Below are positions 1-10,774 of a DNA stretch of 63,698 nt, one piece after another (the first letter of the stretch is position 1; every line of letters starts with the position of its first letter). The notes under the pieces are model-generated. The model was not told where the DNA came from, made no database searches, and saw nothing but the letters and a program-made list of their open reading frames with translations. The stretch spans positions 1 through 63,698 of the forward strand of contig JBHELT010000018.1 of the NCBI GenBank assembly GCA_046262935.1. The letters are read 5' to 3'. The position numbers and the translations under genes are program-made. The stretch comes from Actinomycetota bacterium. Its GTDB lineage: Bacteria > Actinomycetota > CADDZG01 > JAHWKV01.

Positions 1-99
1 GATTCGCCAATCGCCGAGTCTCATAGCTCGAAAATCGCCTGCTGATGCGGGTCTATTCAGCTACTGCTCGTCTACCGTTTGACACGAACCACAGTTGTT
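1..99 (+). mobile_element. Right end of a second IS110-family copy, truncated by the window edge
   Basis: 1-103 is identical to 2564-2666 (IS right end plus GTTATGC); the flanks diverge afterwards. Confidence 0.9.
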
Positions 100-103
100 A
101 TGC
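97..103 (-). repeat. attC R'' box (GCATAAC on minus), interrupted by IS110
   Basis: RYYYAAC-type box 8 nt after the stop of cassette gene 112..420; same junction as 2660-2666. Confidence 0.75.
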
Positions 104-111
104 GGCACATC

Positions 112-420
112 TCAGCTGAACCGTCTGAGGTACATCGAGGAAACCACTAGCGCGCCAACTAGCGGACCCACAAAAACGACAAGAGCCACCCATTCTTTAG
201 AGACAATCGACTTAGGAGCGAAGGCTAGGATCGCAGCGCTCACCACACACGCGATCAAGAGTGCCCAACCTGCAAACGCATTTACCGGAAACCAAATCTC
301 GCGACTGGAAAGTGTCTTTTGAGTGCGAAATCCATACCAGGAATTCGGTCCAATCCATCGGAGGATGAGTGGGATGCTTACCACCGCCAAGAGAGCGTCG
401 GCGAAATAAAGTTGGCTCAA
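112..420 (-). CDS. SdpI/YhfL-family membrane protein (cassette gene)
   Basis: PNSWYGFRT..TLSS..IW..VN.FAG motif, three TM segments, GAGGAGG RBS before TTG. Confidence 0.75.
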   Translation of the reverse strand: MSQLYFADALLAVVSIPLILRWIGPNSWYGFRTQKTLSSREIWFPVNAFAGWALLIACVVSAAILAFAPKSIVSKEWVALVVFVGPLVGALVVSSMYLRRFS

Positions 421-461
421 CCGAATCCTCCTCTTCTCTGAACCCCTTGATTCATTGGTCC

Positions 462-522
462 GTATAACGGCTTGGGCGGTGAGCCGCCGGCGAAGCCGGC
501 CGGTTCCACCGCCGTGTTAGAC
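462..522 (-). repeat. attC site (61 bp)
   Basis: Minus strand GTCTAAC...imperfect GC-rich palindrome...GTTATAC, directly after gene 541..873. Confidence 0.85.
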
Positions 523-540
523 AGCATTCGCTCAAAGCGA

Positions 541-873
541 CTACCTTCCGTTTGATAGCAGAGACCAGAATACTAGGCCGGTGGCATTCCATATGAACAC
601 GCATGAGCGGAATAACCAAAGGAACCTTCGCGATTCTTTGTCCTCCCGGATCCACGTTGGTGAGAAGAAGAGCCAAACAAAAAAGCACCTATTGAAGGCA
701 AACCAGCTCCGAAAAGCTGTCGCCTCACGAGGATGGAAGAACCATCCGCGTGGTCTCCCATCGCGCTCCCATTGCTCGCGGTGATCGCGATACTCCCGTC
801 GAAGCAATTGCTCGAACCCTACAAAGGCCCCAATGAATACGAGCATTAGCGCTAAGAAGATTAAGATGTCCAA
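541..873 (-). CDS. Hypothetical membrane protein (cassette gene)
   Basis: 110-aa ORF filling the space between two attC sites; hydrophobic N- and C-terminal segments. Confidence 0.65.
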   Translation of the reverse strand: MDILIFLALMLVFIGAFVGFEQLLRREYRDHREQWERDGRPRGWFFHPREATAFRSWFAFNRCFFVWLFFSPTWIREDKESRRFLWLFRSCVFIWNATGLVFWSLLSNGR

Positions 874-880
874 CCGGTCT

Positions 881-931
881 GTCTAACGGTTTGGCCGTTC
901 ACCCGCCGAAGGTCGGGTGCAACGGCGTGTT
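881..931 (-). repeat. attC site split by IS110 (remainder at 2663-2666)
   Basis: Joining 881-931 to ATGC (2663-2666) rebuilds GTCTAAC...palindrome...GTTATGC (55 bp). Confidence 0.85.
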
Positions 932-1020
932 GATACATATCTTCCTCTGATTCCACGACCTGTTGCCGTTCTCATGCGAGAACCGAGCCCAAGGTAGTGG
1001 ACGGCACGAGGAGGTGGGCA

Positions 1021-2337
1021 ATGGAGTTCATCGGTGGGCAGCAACAAGCAGAGTTCGTGGACAAGATTCGCGACGCCAACAGAGAGCGTCTTCTGGCAGC
1101 ACCCATTGATGTGGGTAAGCATAAGGCGGCAGCACTGGTTTGTGACTTCTTCGGCGAGATCGTGGCTCCGCCATTCGAGTTCGATCTGAACGAGAGAGGA
1201 TTCACACAACTTACGACCGTCCTTTGTCGAGCTGAAGCGCAGCGTGATGCGGCCTGGACGAGAGTCGGTCTCGAGCAAGCTGGCCATTATCACGACACGC
1301 TTCTCGTGCGGTTGCAAAACGAAGGACTCGACGTCGCACTACTCAACCCAGCCCAGGTGAAGGAGAACCGTTCCCAGAATCTGTTGCGATCGATCAAGAC
1401 CGATGCCCGCGATCTAGCAGCCATGGCAGAGCTCATCATCCGCGGCAAGGGTCGCACCGCCCCAGTTGAAGATGGTCCCATGGCACGGCAGGCTGTTTTG
1501 GTGGCGCATCGACGCCGCAAGGTCAGGGCTCGCTCCGCACTCAAGAACCAGATCCTTTCGACACTCGACCTGGTGTTCCCGGGGCTCGACGGCTGCTTCA
1601 CTGACATGCTCGATACCAAGCTCGGCAATCTGTTGATCTGTGAAGCAATAACTCCCGAGCGAGTGATGCGCCTTGGATCCAAAAGGCTTCGCACCTTCGC
1701 CGGTAATCGTGGGGTAATGGTGAAACAAGCCAAGGCGGATCAGATCGTAGAGGCCGCCCGGATTGCCTTCAAACTACCTGCTACCAGGGCAGATGCGCTG
1801 CTCGAGGTCATCTCAGCCGATGCGAAGCTGCTCGAAGCACTCGAGTCCACGATTGAAACTACTGAAGCCAACCTTGCCGAGGTGCTGCCGCGAACTGCGG
1901 CAGCAGTGCTCACCTCGATGCCGCACGTGAACGTCGTGCGCGCTTCCAATTACGGCGCGGCGGTCGGTGACCACAGTCGTTTCACAAGTGCCGCTCAGGT
2001 CTATCGGCTGAGTGGGCTGGTCCCGAAACTCTACGAGTCGGCTGGACGCAGAAGACCAGGCACCGCCATCAGTCGCGAAGGAAAGGTGGAACTCAGAGAG
2101 GCCATCTTGGATCTGGGTAGAGCCCTTCGGCTCGGGCACCCAGACTTCAAGGCATATGCCCTACAGCTAAAGGAACGCGGCAAGCACAACGGGGTGATCA
2201 TGTGCGCGCTCGGAAACCGAGCCAACCGGATCGCCTTCCGCATGATGTGCGATCAAACATCTTTCGACGGGGCACTATGGCCACGCGTAAGCGGACGGAT
2301 CCCTCATGGCCGACTCGCGTCGACCAGGCCGAAGTAA
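1021..2337 (+). CDS. IS110-family DEDD transposase / bridge recombinase
   Basis: IDVGKH, GLEQAGHY, IKTDARD (DEDD); C-terminal SGLVPKLYESAG and SREGKVELR; ATG 1021 follows GAGGAGG (track start 997). Confidence 0.93.
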   Translation: MEFIGGQQQAEFVDKIRDANRERLLAAPIDVGKHKAAALVCDFFGEIVAPPFEFDLNERGFTQLTTVLCRAEAQRDAAWTRVGLEQAGHYHDTLLVRLQNEGLDVALLNPAQVKENRSQNLLRSIKTDARDLAAMAELIIRGKGRTAPVEDGPMARQAVLVAHRRRKVRARSALKNQILSTLDLVFPGLDGCFTDMLDTKLGNLLICEAITPERVMRLGSKRLRTFAGNRGVMVKQAKADQIVEAARIAFKLPATRADALLEVISADAKLLEALESTIETTEANLAEVLPRTAAAVLTSMPHVNVVRASNYGAAVGDHSRFTSAAQVYRLSGLVPKLYESAGRRRPGTAISREGKVELREAILDLGRALRLGHPDFKAYALQLKERGKHNGVIMCALGNRANRIAFRMMCDQTSFDGALWPRVSGRIPHGRLASTRPK

Positions 2338-2401
2338 TCCGTCCGCAGACGACATGTTTTCATCATCAAACAGCAATGGCGAACGCGATAAAGATGTGGA
2401 C

Positions 2402-2550
2402 GGGGCCGGGACTAACGCCGACCGTGTTATGGGGCCTTCGGGACTCCGGGTATAACAGGGCGCCTCGGCCCCTTCCCACAAGGGAGCGCGAACGTAGTTG
2501 TCAGGACCACTGAAGTGCAGGTGAGTCCGTGTAGATCAACGAGCAGCCCC
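2402..2550 (+). ncRNA. Putative IS110 bridge RNA (target-binding and donor-binding loops); boundaries approximate
   Basis: Two stem/internal-loop/hairpin modules; loop strands match attC (CGTGTTAT, GTATAAC) and the IS circle junction (AGTTGT, ATCAAC); C(UUCG)G tetraloop. Confidence 0.7.
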
Positions 2551-2705
2551 GGGAACCCATCTGGATTCGCCAATCGCCGAGTCTCATAGCTCGAAAATCG
2601 CCTGCTGATGCGGGTCTATTCAGCTACTGCTCGTCTACCGTTTGACACGAACCACAGTTGTTATGCCGCTGTCAGGAAACGTATCAGTTCGACCAGTTTG
2701 GGAGG

Positions 2706-2891
2706 TTACTGACCTTCATTTTGCTGGCTGTTCTCAGACCTAAACTCCATAATCTCTTTTACCCACTCGAAGCACTCGTTGCAAATTCCCAAATCAACGT
2801 CGTTGGAGGGAACGACTATCGTGCCCACTTCATCTTGCCGCTTATTGCAAAAGAGGCATTTGACTGCTCGTGATTTTGGCTCGGTGACCAG
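2706..2891 (-). CDS. Stand-alone ClpX C4-type zinc-finger protein (cassette gene)
   Basis: CLFCNKRQDEV...GICNECFEWVKEI resembles ClpX ZBD; probable CTG start at 2891 after GAGGGGG (track start 2936). Confidence 0.6.
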   Translation of the reverse strand: MVTEPKSRAVKCLFCNKRQDEVGTIVVPSNDVDLGICNECFEWVKEIMEFRSENSQQNEGQ

Positions 2892-2905
2892 GGAATCCCC
2901 CTCGG

Positions 2906-3328
2906 TTACGCTGGGCGTGTGGCGATTGCGACACAATCAGCAACCGACCCACCGCTTGCGCGACAAATCCTGTAGGTGGTTAGGTTGATTACGGGAGCAT
3001 TATGCAGGCAGAGTCGCGGATCTTGGCATGCCTGGCCAAGAACGAAATCAACGCCTTGATTGGCAAGACCAACGCCCTGATCGGAAAGCCCAAGGGCGGA
3101 GTGTAATGGCTCGGTACCCTCCAATTGGTGATCTGTAGACTCAAGCGTCTGCGCCGTACCTGGGTCGATGCAGGCTAACGTGTCGAGCCCCGAAGGAGGC
3201 AACCGTATCGGGATAATACATGAAACGATATCGCCCGGGTCGGCGGACGCGCTGAACGGCAGTTGAATAACTGCTGCGACTGAAAATAGCAAAGCTAGCC
3301 ACAATGAACAATATCTTCTCATTCTCAA
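2906..3328 (-). CDS. Hypothetical secreted Cys-containing protein (cassette gene)
   Basis: Signal peptide ending ASA; six Cys in the mature part. Confidence 0.6.
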   Translation of the reverse strand: MRMRRYCSLWLALLFSVAAVIQLPFSASADPGDIVSCIIPIRLPPSGLDTLACIDPGTAQTLESTDHQLEGTEPLHSALGLSDQGVGLANQGVDFVLGQACQDPRLCLHNAPVINLTTYRICRASGGSVADCVAIATRPA

Positions 3329-3446
3329 ACTCCCAGCATGTCTGCGGGACCTTATCGGGCCATTATGTATTTGTCAAAACATAGTGTTCGATCGTCCTAC
3401 ATGGTCCTCGCAAAAAGGGTGTTCCATCAATCTTCGTTAGCTGTCG

Positions 3447-3507
3447 GTATAACGGATTGGCCGCTCAGCCGCCGCCGAAGGCGGTCGGTTGCCGCGGCGT
3501 GTTATGC
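3447..3507 (-). repeat. attC site (61 bp)
   Basis: Minus strand GCATAAC ACGCCGCGGCAACCGACCGCC TTC GGCGGCGGCTGAGCGGCCAATCC GTTATAC, with an unpaired A after CCG as in canonical attC. Confidence 0.88.
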
Positions 3508-3803
3508 AGTTGAGATTCCTTCTCGGCGGGTTCTCTAAGATTTCGGTTAGCACTTTGGGTGCCAAGTTGGCGCAGGCGATGGGAGTAGAAATACCCCGAG
3601 TAGAAGAGGAAGAGCGCCGGGGTGAAGAAAACTATCGGCTCGAGCTTGATATCCCAGAACGACATGACTTGCGCTGCGACTAAGAAGGTACCCCAGCCTG
3701 CAATGCCTAGCCACCAAAGTTTGACACTACGATTCCACTTCTTCGAGGTCATCGGACGACGAAACCCCATACGTTCGTCGAGGCGATTTAGTTTCTCAAG
3801 CAA
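3465..3803 (-). CDS. Hypothetical membrane protein (cassette gene), reads into its attC
   Basis: GGAGG RBS plus TTG; two TM segments. Confidence 0.6.
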   Translation of the reverse strand: MLEKLNRLDERMGFRRPMTSKKWNRSVKLWWLGIAGWGTFLVAAQVMSFWDIKLEPIVFFTPALFLFYSGYFYSHRLRQLGTQSANRNLREPAEKESQLHNTPRQPTAFGGG

Positions 3804-3820
3804 TCAGGTACCTCCCATCT

Positions 3821-3893
3821 GCATAACGGACTTGGCGCTCAGCCGCCACTTGGCGCGTAGCTCCAAGTGGTCGGTTGCCGCGCCGGGTTAAAC
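3821..3893 (-). repeat. attC site (73 bp)
   Basis: Minus strand GTTTAAC...CCACTTGG/CCAAGTGG hairpin...GTTATGC. Confidence 0.88.
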
Positions 3894-3944
3894 AGCAACA
3901 TTGCGCGCGACCTGCAAAGTCCAACCGTTTTCACGAATACCCAT
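3888..3944 (-). CDS. Putative 18-aa mini-ORF MGIRENGWTLQVARNVAV (small cassette)
   Basis: GAGGGG RBS, ATG 3944, TAA stop inside the R'' box GTTTAAC. Confidence 0.4.
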   Translation of the reverse strand: MGIRENGWTLQVARNVAV

Positions 3945-4044
3945 GGTCTGCGCCCCTCATCACGACTCGGCCCCAATTATCGCGGGCCTTAGCTTTGAAA
4001 CCATCGATCACACGACACGCGTGAATCCGCACGACGAAAGGTCT

Positions 4045-4097
4045 GTTTAACTCTTGTATGAACAGACCTGGTAAACCCGGTCCCCGGCGTGTTAAAC
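4045..4097 (-). repeat. Degenerate attC or attI-like site heading the array
   Basis: GTTTAAC ACGCCG...TTCATAC AAGA GTTAAAC; perfect outer boxes, weak internal symmetry. Confidence 0.55.
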
Positions 4098-4220
4098 GCA
4101 GGGCTTGGAGCGGGCGGGGTGATGGAAATGGCCCTTTGAACAGCGGGTTTGAGTCGGTCCATGGAGTGTCCCCCGTCGTTATGCCGCTATGCCGGTCGGT
4201 ATAAGCGCGTTTCAAACTCG

Positions 4221-4305
4221 TGTCCGAGCGGGGATTTGAACCCCGATGAACTTGCGTTCACTAGGCCCTCAACCTAGCGCGTCTACCTAGTTCCGCCACT
4301 CGGAC
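4221..4305 (-). tRNA. tRNA-Leu (anticodon GAG), CCA not encoded
   Basis: Acceptor GTCCGAG/CTCGGAC, anticodon arm CTAGG-TTGAGGG-CCTAG, long variable arm, TTCAAAT T-loop. Confidence 0.95.
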
Positions 4306-7498: not shown

Positions 7499-9126
7499 CT
7501 TCCCAACTCGCGCAGAACTGGGTCACCGAATAGATCCGTTGGCTTATTGATCGCGGCGACAACGCTCGTCCTGAACCCGACGTGATCGACCCCGAACCAG
7601 ATGGGAAGGATGGGAACCGATTCGCAAAGCGCCGATGCCGCCCGCGCATAGATCGCGGCGCGCTCGGAGTCCGAAACGGTCGCTCGCGCTTTCTTCATAA
7701 GCATGTCGAAGCTCGAGTCGCTGAATCTTTCGTAGTTATCGAGGCTGCCGGTAGAGAACAATGGATCGAGGATAGCTTCGGGCGACGGATACTTGAGCGA
7801 CCATGCCAAGCGGTATGGCCCATCAGGCCCATCGCCGGCGAGGATGTCGAGGAATACCTTCCAATCGTCCGATCTCAAAGTCGATGTGACACCGATGCTC
7901 TCGTTCCACGACTTGATGAGCGGCCGCAACCACGCCTCATGGCCCCCATCGGAGTTCGTCCTCACGGTCATAGTCACCTTCGATGGGTCTATCTTGGAAA
8001 GGGTCAGTTCGCGCTTCGCCTTCGGTCGGTCCGGAACCCTTGGAACCGACGTTAAGCAATCAGATGCCTTCGATGCTGGTCCCGCCGTTGGTGGGAGCAT
8101 CCCGGTTGCGATCAGGCGCGTCCCAACCAGAACCCCGTCAACTATCGCCTGCCTGTTGATAGATCGATCAAGCGCAACGCGGAAATGCGGATCGTTGAAA
8201 GGAGGTCGCGTGACCGGCAAGCCGATGTAGGACACGAGCCCGTTCGCGGCAGCCTGAACCGAGATGCCCGCACGCTTCGCTCTTGCGATCTCATCGACCG
8301 GAACCTCAGCCACATCGGCTTTCTTAGCGGCGAGGGTCTTGAACACATCAACTGGGCTCTTGCCGAATATGAATTCGATCCTGTCGTACCAACCACGACC
8401 AGCACGAGACATAGAAGGCCTCATCCCCTGATAAGCGGTGTAGCGAGTGAGGCCTAGGCCATGGCCCTTCTCCCATGGTTTGGCCAGCATGTAGGGCCCC
8501 GTACAAGAAGGCGCATCCCCAAACGACCCTTTGTCCACTTCCTCCTTGGGAACCGCAGTGCCCGCGGTTGGATTGGACAAGATGGTGGGTAACTCCGCGA
8601 ATGGCTCCGAGGTTTCGACAGTAAGGGTTTTGTCGCCAATCGCCTTCACTCCGGAGAGAGTGGGAGTCTTGTCTGTCCTTAGATCAAGGTAACCTGCCAC
8701 TTTCTCGAACAAGAAGTGCTGGGCAGAACCCGTCTTTGCAGATACGAAACGTGAGATCGAATAGACGAAGTCCGACGCCGTTACCTCGCGACCGTTATGG
8801 AATTTGATCCCGGTTCGCAGGTGGAATGTGAAGTGGCGCGCATCGGGTGATACATCCCAAGAGGCTGCGATATCGGGGACGAGGCGCCCGGTCGTTGGTT
8901 CGAACGTGACCAACGTGTCGCATAGCTGCTTCAACACCAACACAGCGGCCCGGCTATTGGCGGCTACAGGGTCGAGCGATTCGGGTTCGAGCGAAGCGAC
9001 GGTCAACGTGCCCCCCACCCTCGGTAGCCGGTGAGGCGAAGACTCGACGGCCGAGGGATTGATCGCACAGGCGGGGAACGCGACGGCGAACAGGGCCAAG
9101 GCAACCCATCGTCTTACTGAAATCAC
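7495..9126 (-). CDS. Peptide ABC substrate-binding lipoprotein (family 5)
   Basis: Lipobox; EPESLDP, FHNGREVTASDFVYS, CTGPY. Confidence 0.92.
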   Translation of the reverse strand: MISVRRWVALALFAVAFPACAINPSAVESSPHRLPRVGGTLTVASLEPESLDPVAANSRAAVLVLKQLCDTLVTFEPTTGRLVPDIAASWDVSPDARHFTFHLRTGIKFHNGREVTASDFVYSISRFVSAKTGSAQHFLFEKVAGYLDLRTDKTPTLSGVKAIGDKTLTVETSEPFAELPTILSNPTAGTAVPKEEVDKGSFGDAPSCTGPYMLAKPWEKGHGLGLTRYTAYQGMRPSMSRAGRGWYDRIEFIFGKSPVDVFKTLAAKKADVAEVPVDEIARAKRAGISVQAAANGLVSYIGLPVTRPPFNDPHFRVALDRSINRQAIVDGVLVGTRLIATGMLPPTAGPASKASDCLTSVPRVPDRPKAKRELTLSKIDPSKVTMTVRTNSDGGHEAWLRPLIKSWNESIGVTSTLRSDDWKVFLDILAGDGPDGPYRLAWSLKYPSPEAILDPLFSTGSLDNYERFSDSSFDMLMKKARATVSDSERAAIYARAASALCESVPILPIWFGVDHVGFRTSVVAAINKPTDLFGDPVLRELGR

Positions 9127-9172
9127 TCCGGCAATCTATCTCAAGCACGTGCGAACCGACCGACATCTGTGA

Positions 9173-10774
9173 TCACGAACGCGACGCCGACCTCAGTATC
9201 GGAGTGCCGAAGAGATCGAGCCTGGTGGACCCAACGCTGTGTACGGCATCCGAGAAAACCCAATGTCTGACCCCGAACCAAAGAGGCGCGCCCGGCATCA
9301 GCTGACAAATGCGGTTCTCCGCTTGCTGCCATTGAACATCTGCCCGGGTCGGATCCACTTCTGCCCTTGCGCTGTCTATGTCTGCGTCGACCTGGGCGTC
9401 GGAAAATGACATCGTGTTGCGCGGGGAACCCGATCTCACTAAAGCACCGAAGCGGTCGTCGGGGACCGGTAGGCGTGGATCGTTTACCACGATCCATATG
9501 CCAGACGCGCTGTGACCGGCAAGCGAAGTGCCAAAACCGCCCGGATCGAGGGGCTGGAGTTTCAGATCTATCCGGATCGCATCTTTCACCTGCACCTCGA
9601 TCGCCTGAGCTACCAATCGCGAGATCCGTGAGGAATCGAATATGAGTTCCAGGTTGGACTTCGCAGGATCGATCCCTGTCGAAGCGAAAATAGTCTTGGC
9701 TCTATCGGTATCGGCGATCTTGTGCAGGGAGTCCGAGCACACGGATGCGCGGTCTGTTTCATCGGGCAACCATTGGGTCGCCGACTGACGCTGATCACCG
9801 AAGGCCGCATCGATGAGCACCAACCTGTCCAACGCCAGTGAGATGGCCAGCCGCAATCTGGGGTCCGCGGTTGCTGGCTTCGTGACGTCGAACGCAAGAT
9901 AGGTCATCTCCGGAGTGTTGCGGCGTGCGTAGCCCTTAAGCGATCGAGCTTCGACCAGCCGAGAGTCTGGAACTTGGCTCACTGCAACGGTTCCCGCCTT
10001 GAATGCGTCGAAGGCCTCCTCGATGGATGCGAACAGATGAAAGTCGATCCGGTCAGCCGCGCCGTGCCCAGACTCCGTGAAAGCCACATTCGCGCTTCTG
10101 CTCGATGTCGCGCGCGTGAGCGTTACTGAGTTATCCGAAACCCCTTGGAACTTGTATGGGCCTGCGCAAGGCGGGGAAGAGTTCGCCACGGCAGCATCTC
10201 TCTCAACAGATTTGGGGCTGAGCGGAATGAGGGCCGGGTCCGCCAATACAGAAACCATGTCAGACGACGGTTCGCTGAATCGGATCGCTATCGACGAGAT
10301 CCCCACCGCGGTTACTCCAGGAAGGTCGCTCGTTTGCCCCGATCGCACATCTTGGAACCCCTCTATCCGGCTCAACAACGAAGCCGACGGTGAAGCAGTT
10401 GCTGGTCGAACCACGCGCGACAGCGCTTCTCTGATGGCCGGTGCATCCACGGGAGTGTCATCGACGAACTTGACCTTCGGACGAAGGTCAAGAACCAGTG
10501 ATCGAGAGTCTTTGCCAAAAGTCCAACCCTTGGCCAGGGCTGGTCGCGGTTTGCCAGTTTCGGGGTCAAGGCCAACAAGCCCATCACAAGCGGTCCGCAA
10601 CATGAGCAATGCCGATTGAGTGGTCGCTTTGGCCGGATCGAGGTCCCCAGGAGCGAGCGTTCCCACGGACAGCGATCCGCCCCCCGTTTTCGTGACAGGC
10701 GCGACGGCGCCTTTTGGACCACAGGAACCGATCAACAAAACCAACGCCGAAACGGCGATGAAGCGTCGTATCAA
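9173..10774 (-). CDS. Peptide ABC substrate-binding lipoprotein (family 5)
   Basis: Lipobox IGSC; DLDPA, CAGPY; TTG start overlaps the oppF stop (track 10804). Confidence 0.9.

Follow-up and report, generated by a model that had tools for sequence, protein, structure and literature searches.

It is very likely that positions 932 to 2661 of the window (the whole 63,698-nucleotide stretch of DNA that was analysed) are an insertion sequence (IS) of the IS110 family, and also that its 3′ end codes for a bridge (seek) RNA some 150 nt long that targets the R″ end of a subset of integron attC sites. That the RNA is made, binds the recombinase and directs the reaction is suggested by analogy with the published work on IS621, ISEc11 and ISKpn4. 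As RNA-guided targeting of attC was published in 2024, the mechanism is not new; the IS in the window is a new and distant example of it. A first-pass annotation, made from the letters of the sequence, had proposed such an RNA downstream of the open reading frame, with one loop programmed to attC and the other to the IS junction.

The features of the IS are as follows.

932 to 2661, plus strand: insertion sequence, 1730 bp (junctions read directly)
1021 to 2337, plus strand: recombinase gene, 438 amino acids, IS110-family DEDD type (open reading frame; domain matches)
2642 to 2647, plus strand: TTGACA in the right end of the IS, 14 nt before its end (read directly)
1 to 99, plus strand: right end of a second copy, running off the contig (100% identity over 99 nt; repeat families D1 and D7)

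The left junction (931/932) reads ..GGCGTGTT|GATACATA, the IS starting with GATACATA, and the right junction (2661/2662) reads ..CACAGTTGTT|ATGCCGC, the IS finishing with CACAGTTGTT. The boundary is ambiguous by 2–4 nt (TGTT) common to both junctions. The gene leaves non-coding ends of 89 nt on the left (upstream) and 324 nt on the right (downstream). The right flank of the second copy starts ATGCGGCA at position 100, at a cassette boundary. No further copy of the IS and no further match to the RNA model described below was found in the 110 assembled contigs of the genome, which hold one full copy.

The protein matched the DEDD_Tnp_IS110/Transposase_20 pair of domains, PF01548 (88.7 bits against a cut-off of 29, E 4.3e-25) and PF02371 (40.9 bits against 21.3, E 2.7e-10), and also NF033542, ‘IS110 family RNA-guided transposase’ (144.6 bits against 140). 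The IS621 transposase (8wt6) matched residues 294–418, at the C-terminus, with E 4.5e-8, and the solved ISCro4 transposase matched the same C-terminal domain with E 9.4e-8. G332, L333, P335, S340 and G342 were invariant in a four-sequence alignment (A5). The G..P....S(x)G motif is present, with S-A-G here instead of S-G; S340 stands opposite the serine in IS621's YES(G) motif, and we take it to be the catalytic serine.

The DNA in which the IS lies was then compared with integrons. Contig C73 of the genome carries the gene of an integron integrase (421.2 bits with TIGR02249, cut-off 265) and, next to it, attC-like repeats; a profile made from four sites recovered about 17 attC-like sites on contigs C5, C14, C18 and C73. 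Those around the IS are listed here.

455 to 528: attC site (profile search)
875 to 931, plus strand: interrupted attC site, left portion (E 2.5e-6 in an nhmmer search with the attC profile of this genome; repeat families D2 and D4)
3441 to 3513, plus strand: intact attC site, whose right box GCGTGTTATGC (3497–3507) has the same 11 bases as the occupied target and is empty
3815 to 3898: attC site (profile search)

The interrupted site resumes at 2662 (ATGCCGC..). The attC hairpins folded with energies of −19 to −43 kcal/mol, and the two clearest had single-base bulges on the plus-strand 3′ arm. Small cassette genes lie between the attC sites on the minus strand, and the integrase is on that strand too, beyond the array; cassette products with Pfam matches above the cut-off were SdpI (43.9 bits) and a ClpX zinc finger (32.8 bits). 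The gene of the IS, on the plus strand, is thus antisense to the cassettes. The orientation of attC was taken from the coding strand and the position of the integrase, the argument from arm length for the attC strand being ambiguous. The boxes of attC have the consensus RYYYAAC/GTTRRRY, and it is the first (R″, 5′) box that the IS splits, as GCAT|AAC on the cassette strand.

The first-pass annotation had the RNA aimed at the most conserved box of attC. The target is indeed an integron attC site; it is the R″ (5′) end of the site that is used, and only the ..CGTGTT|ATGC subset is matched well. Among the right-hand attC boxes listed, about 10 read CGTGTT and only 5 continue with ATGC; both copies of the IS are at cassette boundaries with the right flank ATGC. 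The 11-nt target implied by the guides has no exact occurrence in the 2.56 Mb of the genome and 30 occurrences with one mismatch, where composition would predict about 69; only a handful of the 30 are in attC sites. The implied target is not unique, therefore the guides alone do not explain the exclusive occupancy of attC. Selection against insertion elsewhere, or further contacts, may contribute to it.

The predicted RNA comprises about 150 nt of the 3′ non-coding region (2402–2547) and has two stem/internal-loop modules.

2402 to 2472, plus strand: target-binding module; helix P1 2402–2410/2463–2472, helix P2 2416–2419/2459–2462, hairpin P3 2431–2436/2441–2447
2486 to 2547, plus strand: donor-binding module; helix P4 2486–2489/2543–2547, hairpin P5 2504–2510/2521–2528

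The stems drawn in the first-pass annotation were all recovered: the outer stem of the first module, GGGGCCG (2402–2408) with CGGCCCC (2466–2472), which belongs to a helix that covaries; its inner C(UUCG)G hairpin (2431–2447), which has one bulged A at 2443; and the hairpin of the second module, GGACCAC (2504–2510) with GTGAGTCC (2521–2528). A fold of 2338–2662, which had been suggested as a check, did not bear the structure out. Single-sequence folding was not significant for that region (z −0.88) or for 2400–2552 (z −0.32), and the conserved structure was not returned. The case therefore rests on comparison with relatives. A search of Rfam gave no relevant family match.

Relatives were collected with the recombinase protein. 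A search of species-representative genomes gave 2 loci, 9 of 401 genomes of the same phylum, counting that of the window, matched at E ≤ 1e-40, and 80 loci were kept of 92 confirmed in metagenome contigs. The records in which relatives occur include some titled Actinomycetota, Conexibacteraceae and Mycobacterium. In relatives at 33–72% protein identity two modules could be recognised by eye, with differing loops that matched the elements' own flanks.

A covariance model (R1) of five helices (P1–P5, 30 pairs), specified by hand on an alignment of the window with the relatives L005 and L015, was searched against 89 sources and the matches (threshold E ≤ 1e-4) were realigned to it with Infernal. 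This gave 43 matches, one per source, and all 43 were downstream of the recombinase gene and on its strand, in agreement with the placement first proposed for the RNA. Among the 42 distinct RNAs, 96.3% of 1228 cells form standard pairs, compared with 76.2% in shuffled alignments; these pairing figures are flattering, as the alignment (A6) was fitted to the structure of the model and the sequences are related, and the contrast remains large with the control in which one partner was slid by 1–3 columns, where pairing falls to 33–44%. On the same 42 rows, 23 of the 30 pairs have changed on both sides, and not one of 500 shuffles came up to the real alignment on any of five measures.

The support extends to each helix. 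In the target module helices 1, 2 and 3 are paired in 95.0, 99.4 and 99.2% of cells, with compensatory changes at 6 of 9, 3 of 4 and 5 of 6 pairs; in the donor module helix 4 is 92.7% paired (3 of 4 pairs compensatory) and helix 5 96.0% (6 of 7). Summed from the per-pair table, 39 cells are G·U on the recombinase strand, which would be C·A mismatches on the opposite strand.

Two earlier alignments were set aside. RNAalifold on a MAFFT alignment (A1) paired the two target-guide strands with each other, as is expected because both cover the core, and the donor module was misaligned; the hand-specified structure replaced it. A five-sequence alignment (A2) was dropped when a one-base bulge was seen to shift the register of P1.

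Four strands of the internal loops are putative guides.

2422 to 2429, plus strand: left target guide CCGUGUUA, in the sense of the target's top strand, GCGTGTT|A (7 of 8 bases agree)
2450 to 2456, plus strand: right target guide GUAUAAC, complementary to GTT|ATGC (7 of 7 with one G·U wobble)
2496 to 2501, plus strand: left donor guide AGUUGU, equal to the right-end bases 2656–2661
2535 to 2540, plus strand: right donor guide AUCAAC, complementary to 929–934, GTT+GAT, at the left junction

The left target guide CCGUGUUA matches the target GCGTGTTA at 7 of 8 bases, the mismatch being at −7. The other three strands stand as they were first described: GTATAAC (2450–2456) is present and complementary to the target with the wobble, and direct reading confirmed that AGTTGT (2496–2501) equals the right end of the IS and that ATCAAC (2535–2540) is the reverse complement of GTTGAT (929–934). 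The core common to target and donor is YT (TT in the window), usually with G before it.

The 5′ loop strand had been given as ACCGTGTTAT (2421–2430). It is present and has the sense of the target; the guide proper is 2422–2429, and the final T, at 2430, is probably scaffold and not guide, as judged from the aligned RNAs. Of the 43 RNAs, 33 end this loop strand with AT. Target position +1 is matched by the A in 35 of 38 elements, and position +2 by the base that follows it in only 4 of 38. Because the last base of the loop so rarely equals target +2, the 10-nt match first reported includes one scaffold base.

If these strands are guides, they should change together with the DNA that flanks each element, and this covariation across homologues, also suggested as a check, was found. 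The guides were read from fixed columns of the alignment. Right ends were found from the left donor guide and the TTGAC box, and left ends from the right donor guide, so the flanks that were compared with the target guides played no part in locating the ends. The right end was located by the donor-guide relation in 39 of the 43 relatives; as the donor guides were used for finding, this is not an independent test of them.

On the right side, 104 of 140 non-core positions in 35 distinct elements match the element's own flank (mean 2.97 of 4), compared with a mean of 1.70 of 4 against the flanks of other elements; none of 10,000 permutations equalled the observed value. On the left, 66 of 84 non-core positions match in 21 elements (3.14 of 4, against 1.15 of 4 with other flanks) and again none of 10,000 permutations was as good. 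Related sequences are not independent, so these permutation counts overstate the significance. The left-side set was restricted to ends starting with GATA, a filter that was set after the output had been seen and that dropped 13 rows; without it, 33 distinct rows give 81 of 132 matches, and 0 of 10,000 permutations. The automatically placed left ends were false in 13 of 34 rows, which start with GACA or GATG, the junction TCCTCCT|GACACCCC being a recurrent example.

Individual relatives show the same relation at single sites. In L021, the closest (82% amino acid identity), the guide CCCAGTT is identical to the flank CCCAGTT, and the site gives no attC signal. In L006 (69%) the left guide is GCCAGTT and the flank GGCAGTT, and the right guide, reverse-complemented GTTAGGC, agrees with the flank GTT|AGGC at 7 of 7 positions, the right end reading ..CACAGTTGTT|AGGCAGC. 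In L021 and L006 guide and flank differ together from those of the window IS; identical loops at other targets would have spoken against guiding. The target-loop and donor-loop layout proposed for the RNA is thus supported both by covariation within the structure and by covariation of guides with flanks.

The L006 element adjoins an attC site, as detected with the attC profile built from the genome of the window. The L006 genome also codes for an integron integrase, which is in two pieces with two TGA codons in the second and scores 271.1 bits (cut-off 265); the integrase is 8 kb rightward on the minus strand with nine attC matches between, and the architecture is as in the window. L028 (70% identity over residues 1–322) also adjoins attC, with two attC sites on its contig, and its junction reads ..GGCCTGTT|GATACAC. 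A strict partner-box test for attC in the flanks of the relatives found none, and it missed the window's own site too. For the recombinases a FastTree tree, rooted at the midpoint, was made from the 79 rows that reached at least 60% coverage in a query-anchored alignment; L015 was among those dropped for low coverage. Rough as it is, the tree groups the window protein with L021, L028 and L006, and it was used for this point only. A further relative, L012, looks attC-borne by eye, and no conclusion here depends on it.

Among the closest known systems are members of the IS1111 family. The downstream non-coding RNA of IS1111-family transposases was described by Siddiquee et al. in 2024 as co-purifying with them, and the seekRNAs of ISKpn4, ISPst6 and ISPa25 as matching both strands of their attC target (PMC11187229). 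According to Durrant et al. (2024), 3′ bridge RNAs are predicted in 93% of elements of the IS1111 group, and in many IS1111 orthologues the donor-binding bases are in a multi-loop (PMC11208160). ISPa21 and ISPst6 are described as inserted close to the 5′ end of attC, in the direction antisense to the cassettes (PMC3001079). The IS in the window is like the first three in having its predicted RNA downstream of the gene, with two short matches to opposite strands of attC (PMC11187229), and like ISPa21 and ISPst6 in the position and direction of insertion (PMC3001079).

The window IS could then be a diverged member, by descent, of the IS1111-attC group (ISPst6, ISPa21, ISKpn4) that works by the same mechanism. 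In Tetu & Holmes 2008 the IS1111-attC recombinases are reported to be a monophyletic subgroup of those of IS1111; the attC-targeting IS1111 elements are said to be the subject of Post & Hall 2009 as well. The shared 5′-end site in attC and the antisense orientation (PMC3001079) would fit such a descent, as would the unequal non-coding ends of the IS, with the long one (324 nt) downstream of the gene and 89 nt upstream of it, as in IS1111 (PMC11187229).

The features by which the IS1111 family is recognised argue against it. Members of the family are described as having subterminal inverted repeats of 11–13 bp and transposases of 330–350 residues (PMC11187229). In five elements, namely the window IS, L005, G164, L016 and L017, the first 70 nt and the last 70 nt shared no inverted repeat of at least 8 matches (at most one mismatch allowed), and subterminal repeats were also absent among the 25 longest of 122 inverted pairs in 900–2700. 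The recombinase has 438 residues, and IS5075 (IS1111-family by annotation) shares 30% identity with it over about 125 C-terminal residues only. A tblastn search of plasmids with the window protein gave 308 records, led by Bacillus and Streptomyces, and no proteobacterial integron element, though copies of IS4321/IS5075 are in at least 5000 plasmid records as found by tblastn with a Pseudomonas IS110 protein. We consider descent from the IS1111-attC group unlikely.

Set against the published description of IS1111 (PMC11187229), the window IS lacks the repeats, the recombinase size and the full-length kinship, and has the long downstream non-coding region. By these criteria it falls outside the IS1111 family and is of the IS110 type, with its non-coding region downstream of the gene. 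Some IS110-type elements, with transposases of 315–450 residues, are described as having such a region as well (PMC11187229), and the window IS resembles this group in the size of its protein, the lack of long subterminal repeats and the long 3′ non-coding region; the description of the group in that paper names no target and no RNA. Because the IS1111 hallmarks are absent, the window IS probably belongs to a lineage independent of IS1111, set apart by its lack of subterminal repeats and a recombinase that is not of about 340 residues from the proteobacterial ISKpn4, ISPst6 and ISPa25, and likewise from ISPa21, elements with which it was compared by their descriptions. No actinobacterial IS110 element targeting attC was among the literature matches listed, which is a statement about that listing and not a proof of absence.

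IS621 (PMC11208160) offers the other comparison. Its DEDD recombinase with a C-terminal Tnp domain is shared with the window IS, as are its junction promoter on the circle, which is predicted for the window IS, and the layout of the RNA, with the target loop first and the donor loop second, and one strand in the sense of the target and one complementary to it, overlapping at the YT core. Unlike in IS621, where the RNA is encoded in the left end, it is 3′ of the gene here, and the recombinase has 438 residues compared with 326–328, with similarity detectable only in the C-terminal 125 residues.

A broader proposal can be made from the relatives: that a clade of IS110-type elements has converged independently on the same end of attC, in the same orientation, as the proteobacterial IS1111-attC elements. 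The clade would be marked by the lack of subterminal repeats, a recombinase of about 420–460 residues and an IS621-like two-loop RNA at the 3′ end, and would be found in Actinomycetota-type genomes and soil metagenomes; within one small subclade the guides would have been rewritten between attC variants and non-attC targets. Our confidence in this convergence is evenly balanced. If it is true, the clade is a natural retargeting series, with at least 35 distinct guide sets on a compact scaffold of 150 nt. The window IS and its relatives would take RNA-guided targeting of attC past the IS1111 family, to a distant IS110-type lineage in the chromosomal integrons of high-GC soil bacteria. This suggests that the ends of attC sites are a recurrent safe harbour, reached by rewriting a few guide bases.

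A separate question is whether the IS is still active. The IS and its RNA gene could be intact in sequence and yet inactive, the occupancy of attC being a fossil. In keeping with this, one full copy was assembled, the identical target at 3497–3507 is empty, and a 2.5-kb insertion, beyond which the right end is found, interrupts the donor hairpin in the RNA gene of the L006 element. On the other side, the reading frame is open and the guides still match the occupied sites; the 99 nt of the second copy are 100% identical, and a contig break inside it is what is expected for a repeat present in several copies. Inactivity is therefore judged distinctly unlikely.

It is very improbable that the 3′ structure is instead a protein-binding end, a terminator or an mRNA stability element whose likeness to the flanks is due to chance or to leftover target sequence. 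The matches are short (6–8 nt) and the single-sequence fold is unremarkable, as this explanation would have it. Against it stand the covariation of the loops with their own flanks in 35 elements on the right and 21–33 on the left, with 0 of 10,000 permutations in each case, the presence of four loop strands at fixed places in a covarying scaffold, and a layout equal to that of experimentally proven bridge RNAs (PMC11208160). That the guide acts as folded single-stranded DNA of the IS end, as in IS200/IS605, is a distinction that sequence alone cannot draw, and it has next to no likelihood given that the recombinase family has been shown to use RNA (PMC11187229, PMC11208160), that the module is at least 100 nt inside the IS and not at its tip, and that the 39 G·U cells are tolerated in the helices.

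For the RNA-guided IS, a mechanism can be outlined. No promoter-like site was found in the linear IS. The TTGACA of the right end and a TG-n-TACATA in the left end would, as read from the sequence, make a promoter only on the junction of an excised circle; a TTGAC-like box is upstream of the right end in 38 of the 39 right ends located in relatives, and junction promoters have been described for ISEc11 (PMC11187229). Excision to a circle would join the two boxes into this junction promoter, from which recombinase and RNA would then be produced. In the target loop, CCGUGUUA on the 5′ side would base-pair with the target's bottom strand over the left half and the core, and GUAUAAC on the 3′ side with its top strand over the core and the right half. 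The sequence that the two would define is ..CGTGTT|ATGC, found at the R″ end in a subset of the attC sites of the host integron. In the donor loop, AGUUGU and AUCAAC would define the junction at which the right end meets the left on the excised circle. The recombinase–RNA complex would bring the circle junction and attC together, and strand exchange would take place at the YT core (here TT), leaving the IS in attC in one orientation, antisense to the cassettes.

Such an insertion parts the R″ box from the rest of attC and should leave the neighbouring cassettes frozen in place, which bears on how integron arrays turn sedentary. Group IIC-attC introns likewise home to attC close to its 5′ end, in the direction opposite to cassette transcription (PMC3001079); unlike the window IS, they are retroelements with a different mechanism and no DEDD recombinase.

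The analysis also indicates that a natural bridge RNA can be recognised, and its target read, by comparison of sequences alone. The 43 aligned RNAs with their flanks form a data set for the rules of guiding (the YT core, the conserved A at +1, the division of scaffold from guide), and the elements are compact orthologues to try in Actinomycetota.

The nearest relative of the recombinase encoded in the window (82% protein identity) is found on a metagenome contig, L021. Its bridge RNA has the same right guide, the strand complementary to the core and right flank, as that of the window, while its left guide, the strand with the same sense as the left flank, is altered at two bases, and no attC signal was found at its insertion site. 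The difference between these two close relatives appears to be a case of natural retargeting.

Variation was also seen within a single genome, G164, which carries four copies of the element (L011, L018, L019 and L020) with mutual identities of 99.6-99.8%. The left guides of these copies differ at one base, two reading GGGCT and two CGGCT, and at this base the guide is the same as its own flank in two of the four, L018 (GGGCT) and L020 (CGGCT). The flanks of L011 and L019 have T at this position. This hints that guide variants emerge and are put to use inside one genome.

The occupied target sequence, GCGTGTTATGC, is also present exactly at 3497-3507 in the window, within an intact attC into which no element is inserted. 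In the unpublished genome G082 a related element is present as a truncated copy (L012, 1380-1950) in an attC-like site, with the junction ..GCGGCGAGTT|GATACGC, and uninterrupted GCGAGTTAGCC was found farther along. None of the conclusions makes use of this locus.

The sequence TTGACA is located at 2642-2647 in the window, 14 nt ahead of the right end of the element, and a TTGAC-like box precedes the right end in 38 of the 39 located among relatives. Left ends begin GATA(C/T), the partner segment in the window being 930-939. Together the right-end TTGACA and the left end would form a putative promoter on the excised circle only.

The bridge RNA gene of one relative, in the L006 genome (G402), is itself interrupted:

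L108 (G402:C4) 7957-10436, 2.5-kb insertion inside the donor hairpin

Repeated CCGGGTG apparently borders this insertion, and the start of a gene within it looks like that of a putative IS21-type transposase.

Three features concern the layout of the arrays:

C73:922-1857 in the window's own genome, minus strand, integron integrase (within L001, C73:1-1960)
G402:C4 127849-128783, minus strand, integrase of the L006 genome, with attC matches to the left of the gene
Window 4221-4305, minus strand, tRNA gene

The cassette genes (window 1-4215) and the C73 integrase are on the same strand and the array is located past the 3' end of the integrase, an arrangement that differs from the usual divergent one; the L006 genome repeats it. 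Window stretches 4041-4099 and 4174-4209, adjoined by the tRNA gene, recur as C73:727-786 and 858-893, with identities of 93% (60 nt) and 81% (36 nt); on C73 they belong to the interval from the last attC to the integrase. Judged from this recurrence, the array in the window terminates in integrase-proximal-like sequence, with the tRNA gene where the integrase would stand. Either a second array or a rearrangement could account for this.
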